Shown piece after piece: positions 54,380 through 63,352 of a DNA stretch of 64,000 nt (positions within the stretch are counted from its first letter, which is position 1; every line of letters starts with the position of its first letter). Origin of the DNA: Minisyncoccota bacterium (GTDB lineage: Bacteria > Patescibacteriota > Minisyncoccia > UBA6257 > JAVHQB01). The notes below the pieces were generated by a model, which saw only the letters and a list, made by a program, of their open reading frames with translations, did not search any database and had not been told where the DNA came from. The stretch lies in the NCBI GenBank assembly GCA_036170905.1, contig JAVHQB010000093.1, positions 123-64,122 of the forward strand, in the 5' to 3' direction. A program made the translations under genes and the position numbers.

Positions 54380-55939
54380 TTATGAATCATACCACTCGGG
54401 CTTTCTAAGACGCATAAAACCTGTAATTCCCTCAAATTTTTTCCTTCTTAAAATAGTATCCATAACGCCCAGAAAAAGCATCTTCATTGTATTGCGGAAA
54501 AACCACCAGTAAAGGCCTCTTTTATGTTTATAGGGAGAGAACAATCCTCTGATCAACCAATGTGGCCGGTATAATATATACCGCTTATTAAGCTCCATGT
54601 TCAACTTGGCAAATTCTTCCATCGATAGCCCATGATCAGAACGCATTATCGGAGTAGCCCAGTCGTATTTTTTAAAATCTTTTTCTGCCAAAATATCATT
54701 TTTTAAGGCTTCCTGGTAAAGAAATGTTCCGGGAACCGGCGCCACGGGATGAAAAGCCGGATAATCTATATCTATTTCAACGGCATACTTCACCAAATCA
54801 AGCATTGACTCTCTGGTATCAAAAGGTAGGCAAGTGATAAAAGTACCCTGCCGGAATACCTGCGGATATTTCTTTTTAAAAATAAGAAAAACTTCTTTTA
54901 CTAAATCACGGGTATAAACAGATTTTTGTATTTTCCTAAGGTCTTCCGTACACCCCCTCTCTACACCAATGAGAGGATGAATTAATCCGGCACGGACCAT
55001 TTTATCCAAAATACCTGCTGACTCATCCCGCAGCAGATAATCTGCCCTTAAAAAGGCCCACCAATACAAATCTTTATAATTCCTCTTTAACAGCCCCTCA
55101 CAAAAATCATTGGTCCATCTAGAATCAACATTGAAAGTCGGATCTGCCCAGATTATATATTTTCGATTATACTTCTTATAAACAATATCTACTTCTTCCA
55201 GCGTTCTTTCTACGCTCTTACTTCTATATTTAGGCATTACCTCCAGTTCGCCTTTTTCTATATCTGTTTTTAGGTGTTGGCCCCAAAATGTCCAAAGAGA
55301 ACAAAAATTACATCTATCTACACAACCCCGAGAATGTTCAAGAGTAGCACTTTGAGGCCAAAGATAACCAAATGGAGAATACTTTCCCATAGGCATAAGG
55401 TCATATGCCGGCAAAACAAGTGTATCCAGATCTCTTATTAAAGGCCGAAGAGATGTTTTGATTATCTGGCCATTATTCTTATAAGCAATACCCTTAATTT
55501 GAGATAAATCTTTCTTTTCTTTGAGCGCCCTAATTAACTCCACTATTGTCTCCTCACCTTCAAATCTTACAATAAAATCGATAGGGAAGTTATCTAAACT
55601 ATAGTCCACCATCCAAGAAAAGAAATGCCCTCCGGCAATTGTAATTATAGCGGGGTTGATCTCCTTTACTAATTTAAACAACCTGACGGCCTCATGATAG
55701 TAGAGAGCTTCTTCTCCGGCTCCGACCATATCTGGTTTCTCTTCTCTTATTACCTTGCTCAAACTTTCCCATCCTATCTTAAGTGGTGGGCAATCGATAA
55801 TTTTTATTTCTAGATCAGGAAACTTTGATCTTATCGCTGCAGCTAAGCAAGGCAAACCCAGGGGGAGAAGAAAATTGTCAGATTCATTTATAAATGGCCA
55901 CAGGAATCTCGGAGGTCTAACCAGTAATATTTTTTTCAT
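54380..55939 (-). CDS. B12-binding-domain radical SAM enzyme
   Basis: N-terminus MKKILLVRPPRF...LGLPCLAAA. HSRGCVDRCNFC is the CxxxCxxC motif. Confidence 0.7.
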   Translation of the reverse strand: MKKILLVRPPRFLWPFINESDNFLLPLGLPCLAAAIRSKFPDLEIKIIDCPPLKIGWESLSKVIREEKPDMVGAGEEALYYHEAVRLFKLVKEINPAIITIAGGHFFSWMVDYSLDNFPIDFIVRFEGEETIVELIRALKEKKDLSQIKGIAYKNNGQIIKTSLRPLIRDLDTLVLPAYDLMPMGKYSPFGYLWPQSATLEHSRGCVDRCNFCSLWTFWGQHLKTDIEKGELEVMPKYRSKSVERTLEEVDIVYKKYNRKYIIWADPTFNVDSRWTNDFCEGLLKRNYKDLYWWAFLRADYLLRDESAGILDKMVRAGLIHPLIGVERGCTEDLRKIQKSVYTRDLVKEVFLIFKKKYPQVFRQGTFITCLPFDTRESMLDLVKYAVEIDIDYPAFHPVAPVPGTFLYQEALKNDILAEKDFKKYDWATPIMRSDHGLSMEEFAKLNMELNKRYILYRPHWLIRGLFSPYKHKRGLYWWFFRNTMKMLFLGVMDTILRRKKFEGITGFMRLRKPEWYDS

Positions 55940-57132
55940 TTCTGTTTAAATAAAATTTTAACTTTGAAATAAATCCTGTACAGTAATTTCAAGATATTTA
56001 ATTTAATCTCTACCATAAAAAAAACTATATTGGATCTTTGCAAAAAATACCTTCCCTCTTCAGGCAAGATTACTAGACCCACCTTTAAATTGGGAGCCAT
56101 TCCTATTGGAATAGCATTTTCTATACATACCTCATACAATCTTCTAAATACAGGGATCATCGTTTGGCTTTGTGGCGGCGCTAAATGCTCAAGAACTGTT
56201 CCTAAACAAGGCCTAAAAATACAAACCGTAGATACCGCACCGATTTTTGCAAAATATTCAATAGCTTTTATGGTGCTTTCTGGAGATTCCAAACCTGCAA
56301 TGATCTCCCCGGAAACCCTGCCTTTACCGAACACTTTAACACAATACTCGATAGCTTCTAAATACTTTCTTTGCGTGATATACTTATGTTTGCCAGGGCA
56401 TATTTCTGGAAATTTATATGAATCATAAATTTCCAGGCAAAAAGAAAGATGATCAACTCCGATTGTCTTTAAATAATCATATTTTTTAAAATCTGGAGCA
56501 GGTGGACATTGAACACCAACCAAAAGTCCTGTTTCTTTCTTTACTTTTTTTATATACGGCCCTAAAATTCCTAATTCTTCGCCAAAAAGGTACCCGGTAT
56601 TAAAATGAACAAAGGTAATCTTCTCTTCTCTTTGCGCAGCTTTAACTGTCTCTAAAACTTCCTGGATACTTTTTTCATATTCCTCAGTCTGCCCTACGTT
56701 TAAGCCTAGAGAACAAAATTTACAATTAACCGGCGGAGTCATCCGCCAAAATTCACAGACTCTTGTGGGATATACCCCTAAATATGTCCCCTGCATTACG
56801 CCAATGCGAGACATAATTTTTCCGGTAGATGTCAGCTTATCATAAAATTTTGGCTTGCCTGGCAGTCTAACCTTACAAATAATTACATTATTTTTCTTTA
56901 TAAAATAGGCGTTACCGTTCTTTAATAAAACATAGGGCGATTTTCCTACAAAATGCTCCACAACCGGAACATTTACATATAAATCTTTTGCCAAAACTAA
57001 CTCTAATCCACTTCCCAAACCACCTCTGGTGCGTAAAACTGGACGAGCGTCATTAAGCAAATCACAACTGGCATCTATTTTGATACCCTGGCAAAATAAC
57101 TCTAATTTTAATAGACCCGGATTAATTTTCAT
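55936..57132 (-). CDS. Cys-rich putative Fe-S enzyme with a radical-SAM-like Cx10Cx2C motif; family unresolved
   Basis: YPTRVCEFWRMTPPVNCKFCSLG has Cys at 126, 137 and 140. Further cysteines: CQGIKIDASC, VQCPPAP, CIFRPC. Its stop and start overlap both neighbours. Confidence 0.3.
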   Translation of the reverse strand: MKINPGLLKLELFCQGIKIDASCDLLNDARPVLRTRGGLGSGLELVLAKDLYVNVPVVEHFVGKSPYVLLKNGNAYFIKKNNVIICKVRLPGKPKFYDKLTSTGKIMSRIGVMQGTYLGVYPTRVCEFWRMTPPVNCKFCSLGLNVGQTEEYEKSIQEVLETVKAAQREEKITFVHFNTGYLFGEELGILGPYIKKVKKETGLLVGVQCPPAPDFKKYDYLKTIGVDHLSFCLEIYDSYKFPEICPGKHKYITQRKYLEAIEYCVKVFGKGRVSGEIIAGLESPESTIKAIEYFAKIGAVSTVCIFRPCLGTVLEHLAPPQSQTMIPVFRRLYEVCIENAIPIGMAPNLKVGLVILPEEGRYFLQRSNIVFFMVEIKLNILKLLYRIYFKVKILFKQK

Positions 57133-57995
57133 ATTTTAATAAGATAGGCAACAGCAAAACCGATCTGCCCTACGATAAGTATAAGATACATATGAATCCA
57201 GGAAATATGGTTTTTCTCTAAAGTAAGCTCTTGGGGACTTTGCCTAATTAACTTAGCTGTATATAGGCCCCAGATAGTTAAAAGTACTAAGGGTAATGTC
57301 GTTAACCTGATTATATGCATAATAATTCCTAGGGGAATAAGCAAAAAGGGGATATAAAAAAACGGGGAAATTATCTGCGTTGCTCTTTTTACGCCGTATA
57401 AAACCGGTAATGTCTTTATTCCAAATTGACTATCTCCTTTTATATCGTTGAAATCTTTTGTCGTTGCTGCGCCCGCAAGATATAAAGCAAATATCAGGCC
57501 GATAAACCATGGCTGGATATTAAATATTGGCTTAGTTACGCTCCAACCGGCAACAATCAAAAGCATCCCTCTGGGCAAAGCAATAGAGATATTGCTAAGA
57601 AACGGATACTGCTTAATTCTAAATGGGGGAGCGGAATAAAAGAATGAAATAATTGAAGTTATTAATATAATCAAAAACAATCTTAGGCTTATAAGCCACG
57701 ATAAAATTAATGCGCTAAAATAAAGTAGTAACGTAAAAATTATTATCTGCCTCTTAGATATTCTCCCGGAAGGAAAAGGCCTAAAAGGTTTATTTATTCT
57801 ATCTATATCTAAATCAAAATACTGATTATTCACATTAGAGGCGGCATTAAGTATGGCGGCCGACAAAGCGCCCACTAAACAATAGAAATTTGGCATAGCC
57901 TCAGATGCGATTATTGCACCCGATAAAAATCCCACCATAGGCGCAATTAGCGTAAACGGACGAACCAGCTCTAAATAGATCTTTAGTTTCGCCAT
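57129..57995 (-). CDS. UbiA-family membrane prenyltransferase (polyprenyl- or phosphoribosyl-transferase type; substrate unknown)
   Basis: NVNNQYFDLDIDRIN is an NxxxDxxxD motif. A second Asp-rich motif (KDFNDIKGD) and about eight transmembrane helices. Confidence 0.7.
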   Translation of the reverse strand: MAKLKIYLELVRPFTLIAPMVGFLSGAIIASEAMPNFYCLVGALSAAILNAASNVNNQYFDLDIDRINKPFRPFPSGRISKRQIIIFTLLLYFSALILSWLISLRLFLIILITSIISFFYSAPPFRIKQYPFLSNISIALPRGMLLIVAGWSVTKPIFNIQPWFIGLIFALYLAGAATTKDFNDIKGDSQFGIKTLPVLYGVKRATQIISPFFYIPFLLIPLGIIMHIIRLTTLPLVLLTIWGLYTAKLIRQSPQELTLEKNHISWIHMYLILIVGQIGFAVAYLIKI

Positions 57996-58906: not shown

Positions 58907-59065
58907 TTAGAATAAGGTATAAATAAATGGAGCTACGGCTGAAGACTGGGTAAAAAATATAAGTATTCCTAAGAAAAAAAACATAATAATGATAGGCGCA
59001 AGCCACCACTTCTTCCTTACTTTAAGAAAATCCCATAATTCTTTGACAATTGCCCATCTTGACAT
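58907..59065 (-). CDS. Unannotated 52-aa membrane protein, DUF5989-like
   Basis: Reverse-complement ORF MSRWAIVKELWDFLKVRKKWWLAPIIIMFFFLGILIFFTQSSAVAPFIYTLF. The Shine-Dalgarno AAAGGAGAG sits 6 nt upstream. It follows the SxtJ-like gene with a 14-nt gap. Confidence 0.55.
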   Translation of the reverse strand: MSRWAIVKELWDFLKVRKKWWLAPIIIMFFFLGILIFFTQSSAVAPFIYTLF

Positions 59066-59079
59066 TCAACTCTCCTTTG

Positions 59080-59481
59080 TTAGAATTGCCTTTCGTAATC
59101 AATCGCCGAAAAAACCTTTTTTTCTTTTGGCTTCCAATATGACTGGCTGGTTCGATTAAACCTTCTATCCAGAAGATCAATCTTGAATAGGCGCATAAGC
59201 AACCCTATTGGTGAGAAAACCAAATAAAAAATTACACATAATAATAATCTTGTATTAAACCAACCTAAAATAAATGCGAATTTCATCAAGGTGATGTAAA
59301 AATATTTTAATAGAGCAGGGATAGTAGCTGCAAACAGCAGAAAAGATAACGAGATTAGTGATGTAATAACAGTTGAATGCTTATGTCTAAGAAAGATTAT
59401 CGTTGTAATCACAGCAAAACATGCGGCCATGGTTAAACCGAATTTTCTTAAAGTAGCCCTGTCTGTTTTTATTTTATCCAT
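59080..59481 (-). CDS. SxtJ-like small membrane protein of the kind that accompanies carbamoyltransferases
   Basis: 133 aa, three transmembrane helices. Motifs LRKFGLTMAACFA...GWFNTRLLLCVIFYLVFSPIGLLMRLF...SYW. Placement is immediately downstream of a carbamoyltransferase. Confidence 0.45.
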   Translation of the reverse strand: MDKIKTDRATLRKFGLTMAACFAVITTIIFLRHKHSTVITSLISLSFLLFAATIPALLKYFYITLMKFAFILGWFNTRLLLCVIFYLVFSPIGLLMRLFKIDLLDRRFNRTSQSYWKPKEKKVFSAIDYERQF

Positions 59482-59486
59482 TGCCT

Positions 59487-61304
59487 TTAATCTAATACAA
59501 AATGCTTTTCCCGGTTCTTGTCATTTTCTGATTTAGCCTGAAGCCGTTTATCCAAAAGATAACTTCCTATTACTAAATAATCCATTTCTGTACGCATGAA
59601 ACAGCAAAATGCATCTTCTGGAGTACAAACTAAAGGCTCGCCCCGCACATTAAATGAAGTATTTATTATAACCGGGCAACCTGTTTTCTTGAAAAATTCG
59701 TTTAGCATATCGTAATATAAGGGATTATCCTCTCTCTTAATAGTTTGTGTCCTTGCTGAATAATCAACATGGGTAACTGCAGGGATCAGTGAGCGGGTAA
59801 CCTTAAGCTTATCAAATCCACGTGCCGCATTAAGCGCAACATCCATATCAAATCTCTTATCTTTCTTGACCGGCGTAACCAGAAGCATATACGGGCTTTC
59901 TCTGTCCAACTCAAACCAATTGGCAGCTTCTTCTTTAAGCACTGTAGGAGCAAAAGGACGGAATGACTCGCGATACTTAATCTTAAGGTTCATTTTGGTT
60001 TGCATCTCTTTATTTCTTGCATCACCGAGAATGCTTCTTGAACCCAATGCGCGCGGCCCAAATTCCATTTTCCCTTGAAACCAACCAATTACATTGCCTT
60101 CTGCGATAAGCTGCGCGATAATTCCCGGTAATTCAATACAATCAAGTTTCCTAAACGATATGTTTTGTTTTTTTAGGAAATTACCAATCTCTTCATCGTT
60201 ATATCCAGGCCCGAGAAGGGAGCCCGCTAAAGAATCTTTAATGTTATCAGTGATACGCTTATTTCCAAGATATTTATGCCAAACTAGTAAAGCCGCCCCC
60301 ATCGCTCCGCCGGCGTCTCCGCTTGCCGGCTGAATCCAGATATGATCGAAGGGACCTTCACGCAAAATACGGCCATTGCCTACACAATTAAGCGCTACTC
60401 CTCCGGCAAGACAAAGATTCTTTTGCCCGGTAGTTTTATGTATATGTCCGGCCATCTTCAGCATTATCTCTTCAGTAACTTTTTGAATAGAAGCGGCTAA
60501 ATCCATTTCTTTCTGTGCAATTTTAGATTCGCTTTTACGGGGAGCTCCGCCAAATAAACGTTCAAACTTCCAATTAGTCATACGTAACCCATTACCAAAA
60601 CCAAAATATTCCATATTTATCTTAAAAGAACCATCATCTTTAATATCAACTAGTTTCTTGAGTATCAAATCAACATAATTGGGTTTTCCATACGGAGCAA
60701 GCCCCATAAGTTTATGCTCCCCTGAGTTAACTTTAAATCCAATATAATAAGTAAACGCGGAATAAAGAAGCCCCAAAGAATGCGGGAATTGCAGATAATG
60801 CTGCAGCTCTAGACTATTATCCTTACCTATACCGAAACTTGCAGTTTCCCATTCTCCTACCCCATCAATAGTTAAAAACGCCGCCTCCTTGAATGGTGAG
60901 GGATAAAAAGCGCTGGCAGCGTGAGATTCATGATGCCCGCAAAAAAGAATTTTGCCTCGGTATCCAAGTTGATCTCTAATAATTTCAGGAATCCACAATT
61001 TCTGCTTAAGCCATAAAGGTATGGCTTGAATAAATTGCCTTATCCCTGAGGGAGCGTAAGTAAGTGAAGTTTCAAGAATGCGCTCAAATTTAATGAAAGG
61101 CTTATCATAGAATACCACAAAATCTAAATTGCCTGCACTAATACCGCCTTCTCTGAGGCAATAAACTATAGCATTTTTAGGAAAATTATAATCATGTTTA
61201 CTACGGGTGAACCTCTCTTCCTGTGCTGCCCCAATAATCATACCATCACGCACTAAACAAGCTGCACTATCATGATAAAAGCAAGAAATACCTAAGATAT
61301 TCAT
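59487..61304 (-). CDS. Carbamoyltransferase (NodU/CmcH family), second copy
   Basis: MNILGISCFYHDSAACLVRDG...QEERFTRSKHD. 605 aa. Confidence 0.8.
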   Translation of the reverse strand: MNILGISCFYHDSAACLVRDGMIIGAAQEERFTRSKHDYNFPKNAIVYCLREGGISAGNLDFVVFYDKPFIKFERILETSLTYAPSGIRQFIQAIPLWLKQKLWIPEIIRDQLGYRGKILFCGHHESHAASAFYPSPFKEAAFLTIDGVGEWETASFGIGKDNSLELQHYLQFPHSLGLLYSAFTYYIGFKVNSGEHKLMGLAPYGKPNYVDLILKKLVDIKDDGSFKINMEYFGFGNGLRMTNWKFERLFGGAPRKSESKIAQKEMDLAASIQKVTEEIMLKMAGHIHKTTGQKNLCLAGGVALNCVGNGRILREGPFDHIWIQPASGDAGGAMGAALLVWHKYLGNKRITDNIKDSLAGSLLGPGYNDEEIGNFLKKQNISFRKLDCIELPGIIAQLIAEGNVIGWFQGKMEFGPRALGSRSILGDARNKEMQTKMNLKIKYRESFRPFAPTVLKEEAANWFELDRESPYMLLVTPVKKDKRFDMDVALNAARGFDKLKVTRSLIPAVTHVDYSARTQTIKREDNPLYYDMLNEFFKKTGCPVIINTSFNVRGEPLVCTPEDAFCCFMRTEMDYLVIGSYLLDKRLQAKSENDKNREKHFVLD

Positions 61305-61452: not shown

Positions 61453-62934
61453 TCAATATAATTTATTTCCTCTTCTGCCTATTGGGTCAAATCCAAACAA
61501 TTCCTCCAACCGGTGAGGGATCTTTTCGGAAAGAATTGACAAACTTGCGGCAGCCAAAGCTAATTTCTCAGCAAAAAGAGCACAACTTCTTTTATGAGGC
61601 ACGGCAGGATCTCCATTAAAAAAATAGTTAACATTCAAACAGGAACCCGTTGATCGGCAAAGACTAAATAAATCACAATCTTTCTGGCAATGCTCAAACC
61701 GCTTATTTATCTTTTTAATAAACGCCTGAAACTTCCTGTTATCAATACCGCAATCCACCTGCCCCAATTCAAATTCGTGCACCCCTAAAAATGAAGTACA
61801 TGGATAAATCTTACCGTCAATACCCACCGCGATCTGTCCTTTGGCGGCAGGACACCCTCCTGAAACTTCATGGTTATAATATAATCTCTGCATTAGCTTA
61901 AAAAATCGATTGAAAAAAGTCTTGCTGTAATTTAACTTTCCGGAAATAACATCGTCAATGTAACGCAACGCTAACTTTTCATATGCCTCATATAAGAGCT
62001 TATAATTTTCTTCTGTACTAAAAAAACTTGATTCTTGCCCGGGTAAAATTTTATGACAGGCATCTTCGCTCTCAAAAATCTCAATCCGCTCAAATCCTAA
62101 GCCTTTCAGGTGTTCATACAACTTTATCATATCAGTAAAAAATGGAGTTACCGTGGTACGGCCTACCAACCTCTTCATGACTTCTTTAGGCATTCTTCTA
62201 AGATTTAATAAAATAGTATCAAAGCTTCCTTTACGATTAATAAACGGACGATTATTATCATGTATGGCTTTAGGCCCGTCGATACTGACGGCGATTTGCA
62301 CCCCTTTGCTAAGTAATTCTGTAGCTATGGCAGGGGTCAAAAGAGTCCCATTTGTTGCCAATAGAAAATGGAACCTTGTTTTCCATTTTGATTGATTCTC
62401 TCTACAATAATTTACTGTTGCCATAAGCGTTTTAAGATTCAACAAAGGTTCCCCGCCATAAAAGTCAACTACCAAATCCTTATCCCTACCTCGTAATTTG
62501 ACTAAAGTATCTACTGCTTTTAGGGCAGTTTCAACTGACATATGGGCATCTTTAGCATCTTCCTCAGGTTTTCCAGTTTGTTTTTCTAAAAATCGCCAAT
62601 TGGAATATTTGCCGTGATCATTCCAGCAATAAACGCAGCGAAGATTACAACTTGATGTTAAATTAAGAGTTAGATCAGTAAGACAGGCAGATGCGCTCCT
62701 ATCAGTTCCAAATGATATCTTTTTATTAGAAATAGGAAAAGGTTTTATTATTTCAAAGGGGATGTTTAACTTTTTTGCTAAAGCTGTGGCTTCTTGCTTA
62801 GAAGGAGGGAACGAAAAAAGAGATATCTCTTTATTCCACTTTTCTAATAAATTAAATATTTCCGGAGCTAGATCGTAAAAATCTCCCGTAGATGTAGAAA
62901 TACCAATATACCGGCCTAATTTATGGAATAAAAC
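61453..62934 (-). CDS. Radical SAM/SPASM enzyme with a ~65-aa N-terminal extension (possibly a PqqD-like peptide-recognition element); no canonical start codon, so the true start may be an ATT near 62926-62934
   Basis: The annotated ORF (first ATG at 62541) lacks the cluster motif. The same frame stays open for 131 codons upstream to a TAG at 62935-62937 and encodes ...TGDFYDLAPEIFNLLEKWNKEIS...ISFGTDRSASACLTDLTLNLTSSCNLRCVYCWNDHGK. There is no ATG, GTG or TTG in that stretch. AGAGG lies just 5' of three ATT codons. C-terminal SPASM cysteines are present. Confidence 0.55.
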   Translation of the reverse strand, partial: VLFHKLGRYIGISTSTGDFYDLAPEIFNLLEKWNKEISLFSFPPSKQEATALAKKLNIPFEIIKPFPISNKKISFGTDRSASACLTDLTLNLTSSCNLRCVYCWNDHGKYSNWRFLEKQTGKPEEDAKDAHMSVETALKAVDTLVKLRGRDKDLVVDFYGGEPLLNLKTLMATVNYCRENQSKWKTRFHFLLATNGTLLTPAIATELLSKGVQIAVSIDGPKAIHDNNRPFINRKGSFDTILLNLRRMPKEVMKRLVGRTTVTPFFTDMIKLYEHLKGLGFERIEIFESEDACHKILPGQESSFFSTEENYKLLYEAYEKLALRYIDDVISGKLNYSKTFFNRFFKLMQRLYYNHEVSGGCPAAKGQIAVGIDGKIYPCTSFLGVHEFELGQVDCGIDNRKFQAFIKKINKRFEHCQKDCDLFSLCRSTGSCLNVNYFFNGDPAVPHKRSCALFAEKLALAAASLSILSEKIPHRLEELFGFDPIGRRGNKLY

Positions 62935-63061
62935 GACTGGCGAAATTACTTTAATAATAATCTACCTCTAAAAATACAAAATATCTACCTAGTTGTTTGG
63001 TGTGCAACCTGGGTTCTTGTAAAATGCAGACGTTAAGGCTGTTTCGGTTGGCTAAAGAATC

Positions 63062-63160
63062 CTTACCACAAAACCCTACCTGATCGGCAGTAACGAGAAA
63101 GTTTTTTCTTAGCTTTTGTAGTTTTATTTACCTTCTTTACTTTTGCCTTTTTTGCTTTCA
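63062..63160 (-). CDS. Unannotated 32-aa strongly basic peptide (MKAKKAKVKKVNKTTKAKKKLSRYCRSGRVLW); candidate RiPP precursor or small nucleic-acid-binding protein
   Basis: Reverse-complement ORF with the Shine-Dalgarno GGAGGTGA 4 nt before the ATG at 63160. The TAA stop is at 63062-63064. It lies 125 nt upstream of the extended radical SAM gene and is co-directional with it. Confidence 0.4.
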
Positions 63161-63352
63161 TTGGTTCACCTCCGTTATAAGAAATTATACTACTAATTAA
63201 ACTTAATACAACTAAAAATATACGTTGTTAATTACCACTGCTTATCGTTCTAAGTACTACTCTGGCTTTAATGAATTCTGCTAAACTTTCCGCAATTATA
63301 ATGTTGCCTCTATGGATAAAATGGCTGAAGATATTAATTTAAAATGAATAAG

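Follow-up and report, generated by a model that had tools for sequence, protein, structure and literature searches.

The 64,000-nucleotide (nt) stretch analysed here (positions 123 to 64,122 of the forward strand of contig JAVHQB010000093.1, assembly GCA_036170905.1, from a Minisyncoccota bacterium; hereafter the window) carries, on its minus strand, a gene for a strongly basic 32-residue peptide followed by a gene for a radical S-adenosylmethionine (SAM)/SPASM enzyme that lacks a canonical start codon. Our best reading is that the two genes are an undescribed, SCIFF-like peptide and maturase pair. In this two-gene module, the enzyme would form a thioether in the invariant tail of the peptide and would itself be translated from a weak AUU start; we assign a probability of about 0.7 to this account as a whole. 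An earlier reading of the window, referred to below as the original prediction, had proposed a precursor and maturase resembling those of peptides that are made on ribosomes and modified after translation (RiPPs), and had left a rare start codon, a sequencing error, and N-terminal inactivation side by side as explanations for the missing start.

Conservation of the Peptide Gene beside the Maturase Gene

The peptide gene (MKAKKAKVKKVNKTTKAKKKLSRYCRSGRVLW, 32 codons and a stop) occupies positions 63063-63161 of the minus strand. The open reading frame (ORF) noticed in the original prediction is thus real, and its coordinates (63062-63160) were displaced by 1 nt. As the prediction had also noted, a Shine-Dalgarno sequence precedes it: the strong GGAGGTGA lies at 63166-63173 (minus strand), and its GGAGG core (63173-63169) ends 7 nt before the ATG. 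The GGAGG is retained in most orthologous loci, where it can be read in the upstream translations as 'GGEPM', 'GGAM', or 'GGVAM'.

Approximately 150 loci were fetched from genome and metagenome collections, and all of them were scanned with a regular expression for the peptide. It was found next to the gene of an orthologous enzyme in about 100 independent loci, usually upstream and on the same strand; in five loci the peptide is encoded on the opposite strand and is still adjacent to the enzyme gene. The hosts belong mostly to the Omnitrophota, with some Elusimicrobiota. The 12-residue tail LSRYCRSGRVLW, at the COOH end, never varies, although its 12 codons occur in 61 distinct nucleotide versions that together use all synonymous codons, and it remains unchanged across phyla while the enzymes diverge to approximately 45% identity. 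An invariant tail combined with free synonymous codon use indicates that the peptide is translated and is under very tight selection at the protein level. Ahead of the tail, the N-terminal part is a Lys-rich (Lys/Arg) tract of variable length, so that the peptides range from 27 to 53 residues in total, and a conserved [IVL]-N-[KR] motif (VNK in the window) stands 13 residues before the Cys.

The constant tail of these class-1 peptides reads KKLSRYCRSGRVLW, with the core [Y/F]-C-R-[S/C]-G-R-V-L-W-COOH. A second peptide class, MIRLLNRRKNGRRYRAAFCRCGRVLW (ending …YRAAFCRCGRVLW), goes with a sister enzyme clade at 38-44% identity and has two Cys residues, compared with one in class 1. Rarer forms end in RTRFCRSGRVLW or FCGCSRVLW, and all forms share the denominator C-x-[S/C]-x-R-V-L-W-COOH. 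In several class-2 loci (L043, L045-L049, L129-L132, L148, and L149), the peptide stop is followed directly, in the first 12 nt, by a conserved pyrimidine motif, TTCCTTC(T), which looks like the 3' end of 16S rRNA and might base-pair with a downstream Shine-Dalgarno sequence.

Four cluster representatives of the peptide were found among 1.84 billion proteins, with no larger protein carrying the motif. Neither Pfam nor NCBIfam gave a match; the peptide has no name in the databases, where all copies are 'hypothetical' or unnamed, and a full-text literature search for the motif returned nothing relevant. No such peptide was found near the genes of distant radical SAM relatives at 28-32% identity (L141-L145, L053-L056). 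The precursor gene is therefore adjacent to the enzyme gene on either strand and co-conserved with it, and the peptide is under purifying selection, which is the arrangement expected of a RiPP pair and bears out the original proposal. Its caveat that such extreme basicity is atypical for a leader also stands, and no protease or exporter accompanies the pair. We consider it highly probable that the peptide and the enzyme are substrate and maturase.

The Enzyme Is a Full-Length CteB-Like Radical SAM/SPASM Protein

The enzyme frame is open on the minus strand from a TAG at 62962-62964 to the stop codon at 61453-61455. The original prediction had placed this TAG at 62935-62937, which is 27 nt off. 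The first sense codons of the frame are ATT ATT ATT (62961-62953), and counted from the first of them the maturase gene (61453-62961) has 502 codons; the database form is a 362-residue protein that begins at the ATG at 62541. Over the 140 codons ahead of this ATG there is no ATG, GTG, or TTG, in line with the predicted stretch of about 130 clean codons. This startless extension is the extreme of the window among open frames of at least 100 codons, and the next real gene has 24 startless codons. As had been noticed, the radical SAM [4Fe-4S] cluster motif, CNLRCVYC (62626-62649, minus strand; residues 105-112), lies upstream of the annotated ATG. Its start at residue 105 agrees with the predicted position of about 100. 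The claim that the motif of every paralogue in the window lies at about residue 35-42 holds for seven of 14 ORFs (residues 25-48), whereas in the other seven it lies at 206-329.

The protein belongs to the radical SAM superfamily, with the CxxxCxxC motif inside a PF04055 match (E=1.7e-15, residues 100-277) and with C105, C109, and C112 invariant in 37 homologues. The SPASM region (residues 370-460; 61582-61854, minus strand) follows the pattern C-x12-G-x4-C ... C-x3-C-x5-C-x5-C ... C. Its seven Cys residues (C370, C388, C425, C429, C435, C441, and C460) are invariant and align column by column with the SPASM cysteines of CteB, and its middle block, C-x3-C-x5-C-x5-C, is slightly off the canonical CxxC-x5-C-x3-C. 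The Pfam SPASM family PF13186 is recorded for many homologues and is unreported for the protein of the window. A profile of the 37 homologues matched CteB (5WGG) with E=3e-58 over residues 10-470. In the AlphaFold (AF2) model (mean predicted local distance difference test score, pLDDT, 80), an N-terminal domain is followed by the radical SAM barrel and then by the SPASM region, and the best Foldseek match in the PDB was again CteB, with a target-normalised TM-score (TMt) of 0.80 over 479 columns. The enzyme is thus a full-length CteB-like radical SAM/SPASM protein with all cluster cysteines present.

The six strongest NCBIfam matches were PapB, the nif11-type maturase, QhpD, a ScfB-like orphan family, the SCIFF maturase, and CcpM, all of them Cys-dependent maturases. 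All six scored below the curated cut-offs, so that no named maturase family was reached: PapB (NF047865) gave 233.5 bits against a cut-off of 340, the nif11-type maturase (TIGR04064) 191 against 518.7, QhpD (TIGR03906) 187 against 453, and the SCIFF maturase (TIGR03974) 180.2 against 425. In the NCBIfam alignments, model positions 90-95 fall at residues 88-95 of the maturase, indicating that some 95 residues ahead of the cluster motif are the normal architecture of this group; the length of the extension is normal for SCIFF, QhpD, and nif11-type maturases.

The N-terminal domain (residues ~8-75; 62737-62940, minus strand) is predicted, at pLDDT 86-96, to adopt the winged-helix topology of a PqqD-like RiPP recognition element (RRE), with strands at residues 9-14, 17-22, and 28-31 and helices at 33-46, 55-64, and 69-72. 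The profile alignment to CteB spans this domain, beginning at residue 10 of the maturase and residue 7 of CteB. The suggestion that the extension resembles PqqD fits the predicted fold, the CteB alignment, and the length, whereas the domain taken alone had no significant sequence match. The assignment as an RRE-type domain is a prediction from fold and architecture.

The Maturase Probably Starts on a Conserved AUU Codon

From 5' to 3', the enzyme gene is preceded by AGAGG (62969-62965), the in-frame TAG, and then the three ATT codons. Read from the sequence together with the clade comparison, the AGAGG (62965-62969, minus strand) is a Shine-Dalgarno-like element with a T-run ahead of it, and the ATT run (62953-62961, minus strand), whose codons lie 3, 6, and 9 nt after it, is the proposed non-canonical initiation site. 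The original prediction had the AGAGG immediately 5' of the ATT codons; both elements are present, and the TAG, which abuts the ATT run, stands between them.

The close clade of the maturase comprises 40 distinct sequences, in which the start region reads T-run, AGAGG/GGAGG, NNN, ATT ATT ATT AAG. The codon at -9 is AGG, GGG, or CGG in 32 of the 40 members. The next codon, -8, is hypervariable, with 17 different triplets, and is a stop in five orthologues (TAG in the window and L004/L082, TGA in L012/L101, TAA in L104). At codons -7 to -5, by contrast, ATT occurs 71 times, ATC 12 times, and ATA never, compared with 46% ATT, 24% ATC, and 29% ATA among the Ile codons elsewhere in the same genes. 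A canonical start is wholly missing before the first conserved strand in 22 distinct orthologues among about 40 close ones. One orthologue, L098, has an ATG at the third ATT position (codon -5), and the 6-nt spacing of the second ATT from the Shine-Dalgarno sequence matches that of this ATG-bearing orthologue. Ordinary starts on ATG or GTG are found in more distant orthologues, those below approximately 55% N-terminal identity.

The ATT/ATC run is conserved, the preceding codon is hypervariable and even a stop in five orthologues, and AUA is never used. For these reasons we regard it as likely that the maturase of this clade initiates on AUU or AUC, 3-9 nt after the Shine-Dalgarno sequence, and that this start is maintained by selection. 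The gene thus combines the lack of a canonical start, an AUU conserved behind a Shine-Dalgarno sequence, and a selected coding region upstream of the annotated start, and among the three options first put forward the rare AUU start is the one favoured. Judged from the selection acting on them, both ORFs of the pair are translated.

Two further explanations were tried and rejected. Stop-codon reassignment, or read-through of the TAG from an upstream TTG, does not fit, as TAA, TAG, and TGA each terminate long open frames within the window and the upstream TTG is not conserved. A general habit of non-canonical starts in these genomes was rejected as well, because in the window and low-GC related loci long startless N-termini are essentially confined to this maturase family.

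Proposed Pathway

In the proposed scheme, the first gene, with its GGAGG and ATG, would be translated efficiently and would yield an excess of a 32-residue polycationic peptide with an invariant C-terminal core. The second gene would give a CteB-like maturase of about 500 residues, whose RRE-type N-terminal domain would bind the peptide leader, probably around the [IVL]-N-[KR] motif. An intramolecular cross-link in the peptide core would follow, made by means of a 5'-deoxyadenosyl radical and placed in the invariant tail by the enzyme's radical SAM core together with its two auxiliary clusters. The most likely cross-link would be a thioether that joins the single invariant Cys to a carbon in one of the invariant R-V-L-W residues (in the window, from Cys25 to one of R29-W32). 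The thioether is the best guess because the closest characterised relatives all form Cys thioethers and the single Cys is invariant; we propose it tentatively, at somewhat below even odds. The maturase of this clade would have given up ATG, GTG, and TTG and would start on the conserved AUU (or AUC), and such a weak start would leave little enzyme per precursor, possibly in a manner sensitive to initiation factor 3 (IF3). A low enzyme-to-substrate ratio makes sense in the context of a maturase. The cross-link chemistry, the binding of the leader by the N-terminal domain, the regulatory purpose of the start, and the role of the product are points that we infer.

Among RiPPs, a core that stays invariant across phyla is uncommon, and it suggests a conserved target or a cofactor-like role. 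The invariant core, the polycationic body, and the absence of export and cleavage genes leave room for an intracellular role of the product. It is a more doubtful proposal that the product is no exported RiPP of the antibiotic type but a strictly conserved, radical-SAM-cross-linked polycationic mini-protein or cofactor precursor acting inside the cells of Omnitrophota and Elusimicrobiota, where it might bind ribosomes, nucleic acids, or polyanions, and that its maturase is tied to the translation state through an IF3-sensitive AUU.

Alternative Explanations

An error in sequencing or assembly might explain the missing start codon, such as a dropped T that would turn GGTAGATT into GGTATGATT; the gene would then have a normal ATG. 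One inserted T would indeed restore an ATG and yield the 503-residue length of many database homologues. Those homologues, however, start on TTG rather than ATG, the 1.9-kb region that was compared is the same in three separate assemblies built from different sequencing runs, and at least 22 distinct orthologues lack a canonical start, five of them carrying TAG, TAA, or TGA at that place; an error is thus scarcely credible. Inactivation of the N-terminus, which would leave a pseudogene or a 362-residue protein from M141 without the radical SAM cluster, earns hardly more credence. Gene callers do annotate the 362-residue form in the window (P0028) and likewise in six relatives, but in 18 startless orthologues neither a stop nor a frameshift interrupts the first 145 codons, whose ratio of nonsynonymous to synonymous substitution rates (dN/dS) relative to the window is 0.14-0.40. 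These codons also hold the invariant CxxxCxxC, and the Shine-Dalgarno and ATT context is conserved. Somewhat less improbable, yet still improbable, is re-initiation coupled to the peptide ORF, which would make a proper start codon unnecessary. It draws on six loci (L010, L109, L112, L042, L005, and L086) in which the peptide stop lies 0-32 nt from the N-terminal codons of the enzyme; in the window and about 20 relatives, however, the gap is 96-104 nt, and the enzyme gene has its own conserved AGAGG/GGAGG 3-9 nt ahead of the ATT run.

A different kind of alternative concerns the product, and it deserves more weight than the three above, although we consider it rather unlikely. Rather than being cut into a natural product, the small protein could be a mini-protein that binds nucleic acids, ribosomes, or polyanions, or else a precursor of a cofactor of the mycofactocin or pyrroloquinoline quinone (PQQ) type, and the radical SAM enzyme would modify it for intracellular housekeeping. 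Such a protein would fit with a 12-residue tail whose conservation far exceeds that of typical RiPP cores, with an N-terminal Lys/Arg tract of variable length, and with the absence of a conserved protease or exporter nearby. SCIFF, a widely conserved two-gene pair of unknown role, is a precedent that also counts in its favour. Against a core housekeeping role, the pair occurs in only some species (185,579 species genomes contain 266 enzyme relatives, even with distant families counted), and the follow-on enzymes of the mycofactocin and PQQ type are absent.

Several observations weigh against the SCIFF-like pair with an AUU start. Nine clade sequences have TTG at codon -8, right after the Shine-Dalgarno sequence, and could initiate there; gene callers pick this TTG although it abuts the Shine-Dalgarno sequence. 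Any of the three ATT codons might be the one that initiates, and AUU initiation is weak in E. coli. The N-terminal domain alone had no Pfam PqqD match at E<=1 and no significant sequence match to the PDB or to another RRE entry, so that its identity as an RRE rests on the predicted fold and the architecture. The core lacks the Asp, Glu, and Thr acceptors used by PapB, QhpD, and CteB; the acceptor residue is therefore a guess, and other chemistry is possible, such as C-C cross-links (of the Arg/Lys-Trp type) or a reaction at the C-terminal Trp. Finally, the 4 kb to each side of the pair contain no conserved protease or exporter, unlike the situation for most exported RiPPs.

Hairpin, Spacer, and Promoter

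The last codons of the peptide (Tyr-Cys-Arg ... Gly-Arg) contain a 5-bp hairpin, CUGCC-N5-GGUAG/GGCAG (63076-63090, minus strand), which was flagged as terminator-like. Of 67 distinct orthologous sequences, 52 preserve the whole stem, compared with 12% expected from resampling of synonymous codons, and the hairpin also occurs in the second peptide class with a longer stem of 7-8 bp. In the tail, the Arg after Cys is always CGN, and the Arg after Gly is AGR in 54 of 61 versions. The U-run after the hairpin is not conserved. The hairpin could act as an attenuator or as a stability element.

Between the peptide stop and the first ATT lies a spacer of 101 nt (62962-63062, minus strand), which is about 96-104 nt long and similar in sequence in many close relatives. 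A structured RNA or riboswitch in this spacer was considered and rejected, as no consensus fold was supported (-0.13 kcal/mol) and Rfam gave no match. Upstream of the peptide gene, TTGTAT and TATAAT, separated by 16 nt (63184-63211, minus strand), form a possible promoter, judging from its letters; the -10 element is perfect and the -35 element matches at three of six positions. A consensus promoter scan did not list this TTGTAT/TATAAT pair, its -35 element being too weak. Promoter-like sites also occur ahead of the gene after the maturase.

Neighbourhood of the Pair

Clustering of the ORFs across 106 loci revealed no conserved partner gene, whether for a protease, a transporter, or a second tailoring enzyme. 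The neighbours of the pair vary and include glycosyltransferases, TPR membrane proteins, a phosphorylase, and sulfatases. In the window, the pair is flanked by a GT2 gene on one side and by carbamoyltransferase, SxtJ-like, and DUF5989 genes on the other. The upstream GT2 gene is common to only 12 loci, and the carbamoyltransferase gene lies beside the pair in only eight of the 106. A tight trio of genes (58907-61304, minus strand), for the carbamoyltransferase, the SxtJ-like small membrane protein, and the DUF5989 mini-protein, comes immediately downstream of the maturase gene.

The window also contains 14 further ORFs with CxxxCxxC (282-55939, minus strand), an unusually dense radical SAM set. 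It sits in a long minus-strand run in which the few genes scanned encode a glycosyltransferase, a carbamoyltransferase, and a UbiA prenyltransferase. Of the seven ORFs with the motif at residues 206-329, one was scanned against Pfam and has a B12-binding domain.

The Omnitrophota contig L006 (1-5997, JAUSEX010000020.1) has a class-1 pair and, about 3.3 kb downstream of the enzyme gene, a class-2 peptide; between the class-1 enzyme and the class-2 peptide lie genes for a polyprenyl synthetase, a UbiA prenyltransferase, and a 398-residue radical SAM protein. In the window, a UbiA gene and a 398-residue radical SAM gene lie 3.5-5.5 kb downstream of the pair (55936-57995), an association that most other loci did not show. 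The metagenome-assembled genome (MAG) SO_2016_LW1_34 has two class-1 pairs on different contigs (L008 and L038), with enzymes 76% and 80% identical to that of the window, indicating that paralogous copies coexist.

Consequences for Annotation

More than 100 homologous proteins were found, mostly from Omnitrophota MAGs. Many of them have 503 residues, and a notable set has 362-473. Public annotations of the maturase in the latter range are truncated at the N-terminus, often losing the radical SAM cluster or part of the predicted RRE (P0015, P0019, P0026-P0028, P0030-P0032, P0035-P0039, P0041, P0044, P0046, P0054, P0066, P0076, and P0080). The window's own entry among them, with its 362 residues, is without the cluster motif. 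Wherever the DNA itself was inspected (in the window, in L004, and in other startless loci), the truncation arises because gene callers disallow ATT starts. Gene callers also miss the peptides. With truncated enzymes and missed peptides, RiPP genome mining in these phyla under-counts and mis-describes the family.

The pair represents a peptide and maturase family that is new and that occurs in phyla of which almost no members have been cultured. It also provides a rare comparative case in which a start other than AUG, GUG, or UUG is kept by selection outside infC and pcnB.

Comparison with Known Systems

The closest counterpart is SCIFF with its maturase ScfB/CteB from Clostridia (5WGG, 5WHY). 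Both systems combine a short conserved peptide with a radical SAM/SPASM enzyme of about 450-500 residues that has an RRE, a predicted one in the present pair; CteB is the best match in sequence and in fold, the seven SPASM cysteines align, and no dedicated protease or exporter was found near the pair described here. In contrast to SCIFF, which has six Cys in about 45 residues, the present peptide has one, is polycationic, and ends in the invariant RVLW, and the pair occurs in Omnitrophota and Elusimicrobiota rather than in Clostridia. With its invariant core, its polycationic body, and its lack of export and cleavage genes, the system stands nearer to SCIFF than to classical bacteriocins.

The PapB-type ranthipeptide maturases (NF047865) and QhpD (TIGR03906), the strongest and the third-strongest family matches, have the same domain order and represent families that form Cys thioethers. 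The core studied here differs from their substrates in having no Asp/Glu acceptor and no CxxxD/E repeats, and the QhpA/B/C context is absent. The MftA/MftC and PqqA/PqqE systems share with the present pair a very short precursor, a strict C-terminal motif, and a SPASM radical SAM enzyme dependent on an RRE, a predicted one in the present pair; however, the MftC and PqqE models were not among the 25 best NCBIfam matches listed of the 65 families matched, and the follow-on genes mftD/E/F and pqqB-F are absent from the neighbourhood.

For the start codon, the comparison is with infC (encoding IF3) and pcnB of E. coli, the classic conserved-AUU genes, for which low, IF3-sensitive initiation is expected. 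As in those genes, an AUU behind a Shine-Dalgarno sequence would be maintained by selection across orthologues. The present gene differs in encoding a peptide maturase rather than a translation factor, with no autoregulatory logic evident, and its AUU trait is confined to one clade, whereas distant orthologues use ATG or GTG. The system would work in the manner of the SCIFF/CteB and ranthipeptide systems, and its two-gene logic is familiar; unfamiliar are the type of peptide and a maturase start that is conserved although non-canonical.

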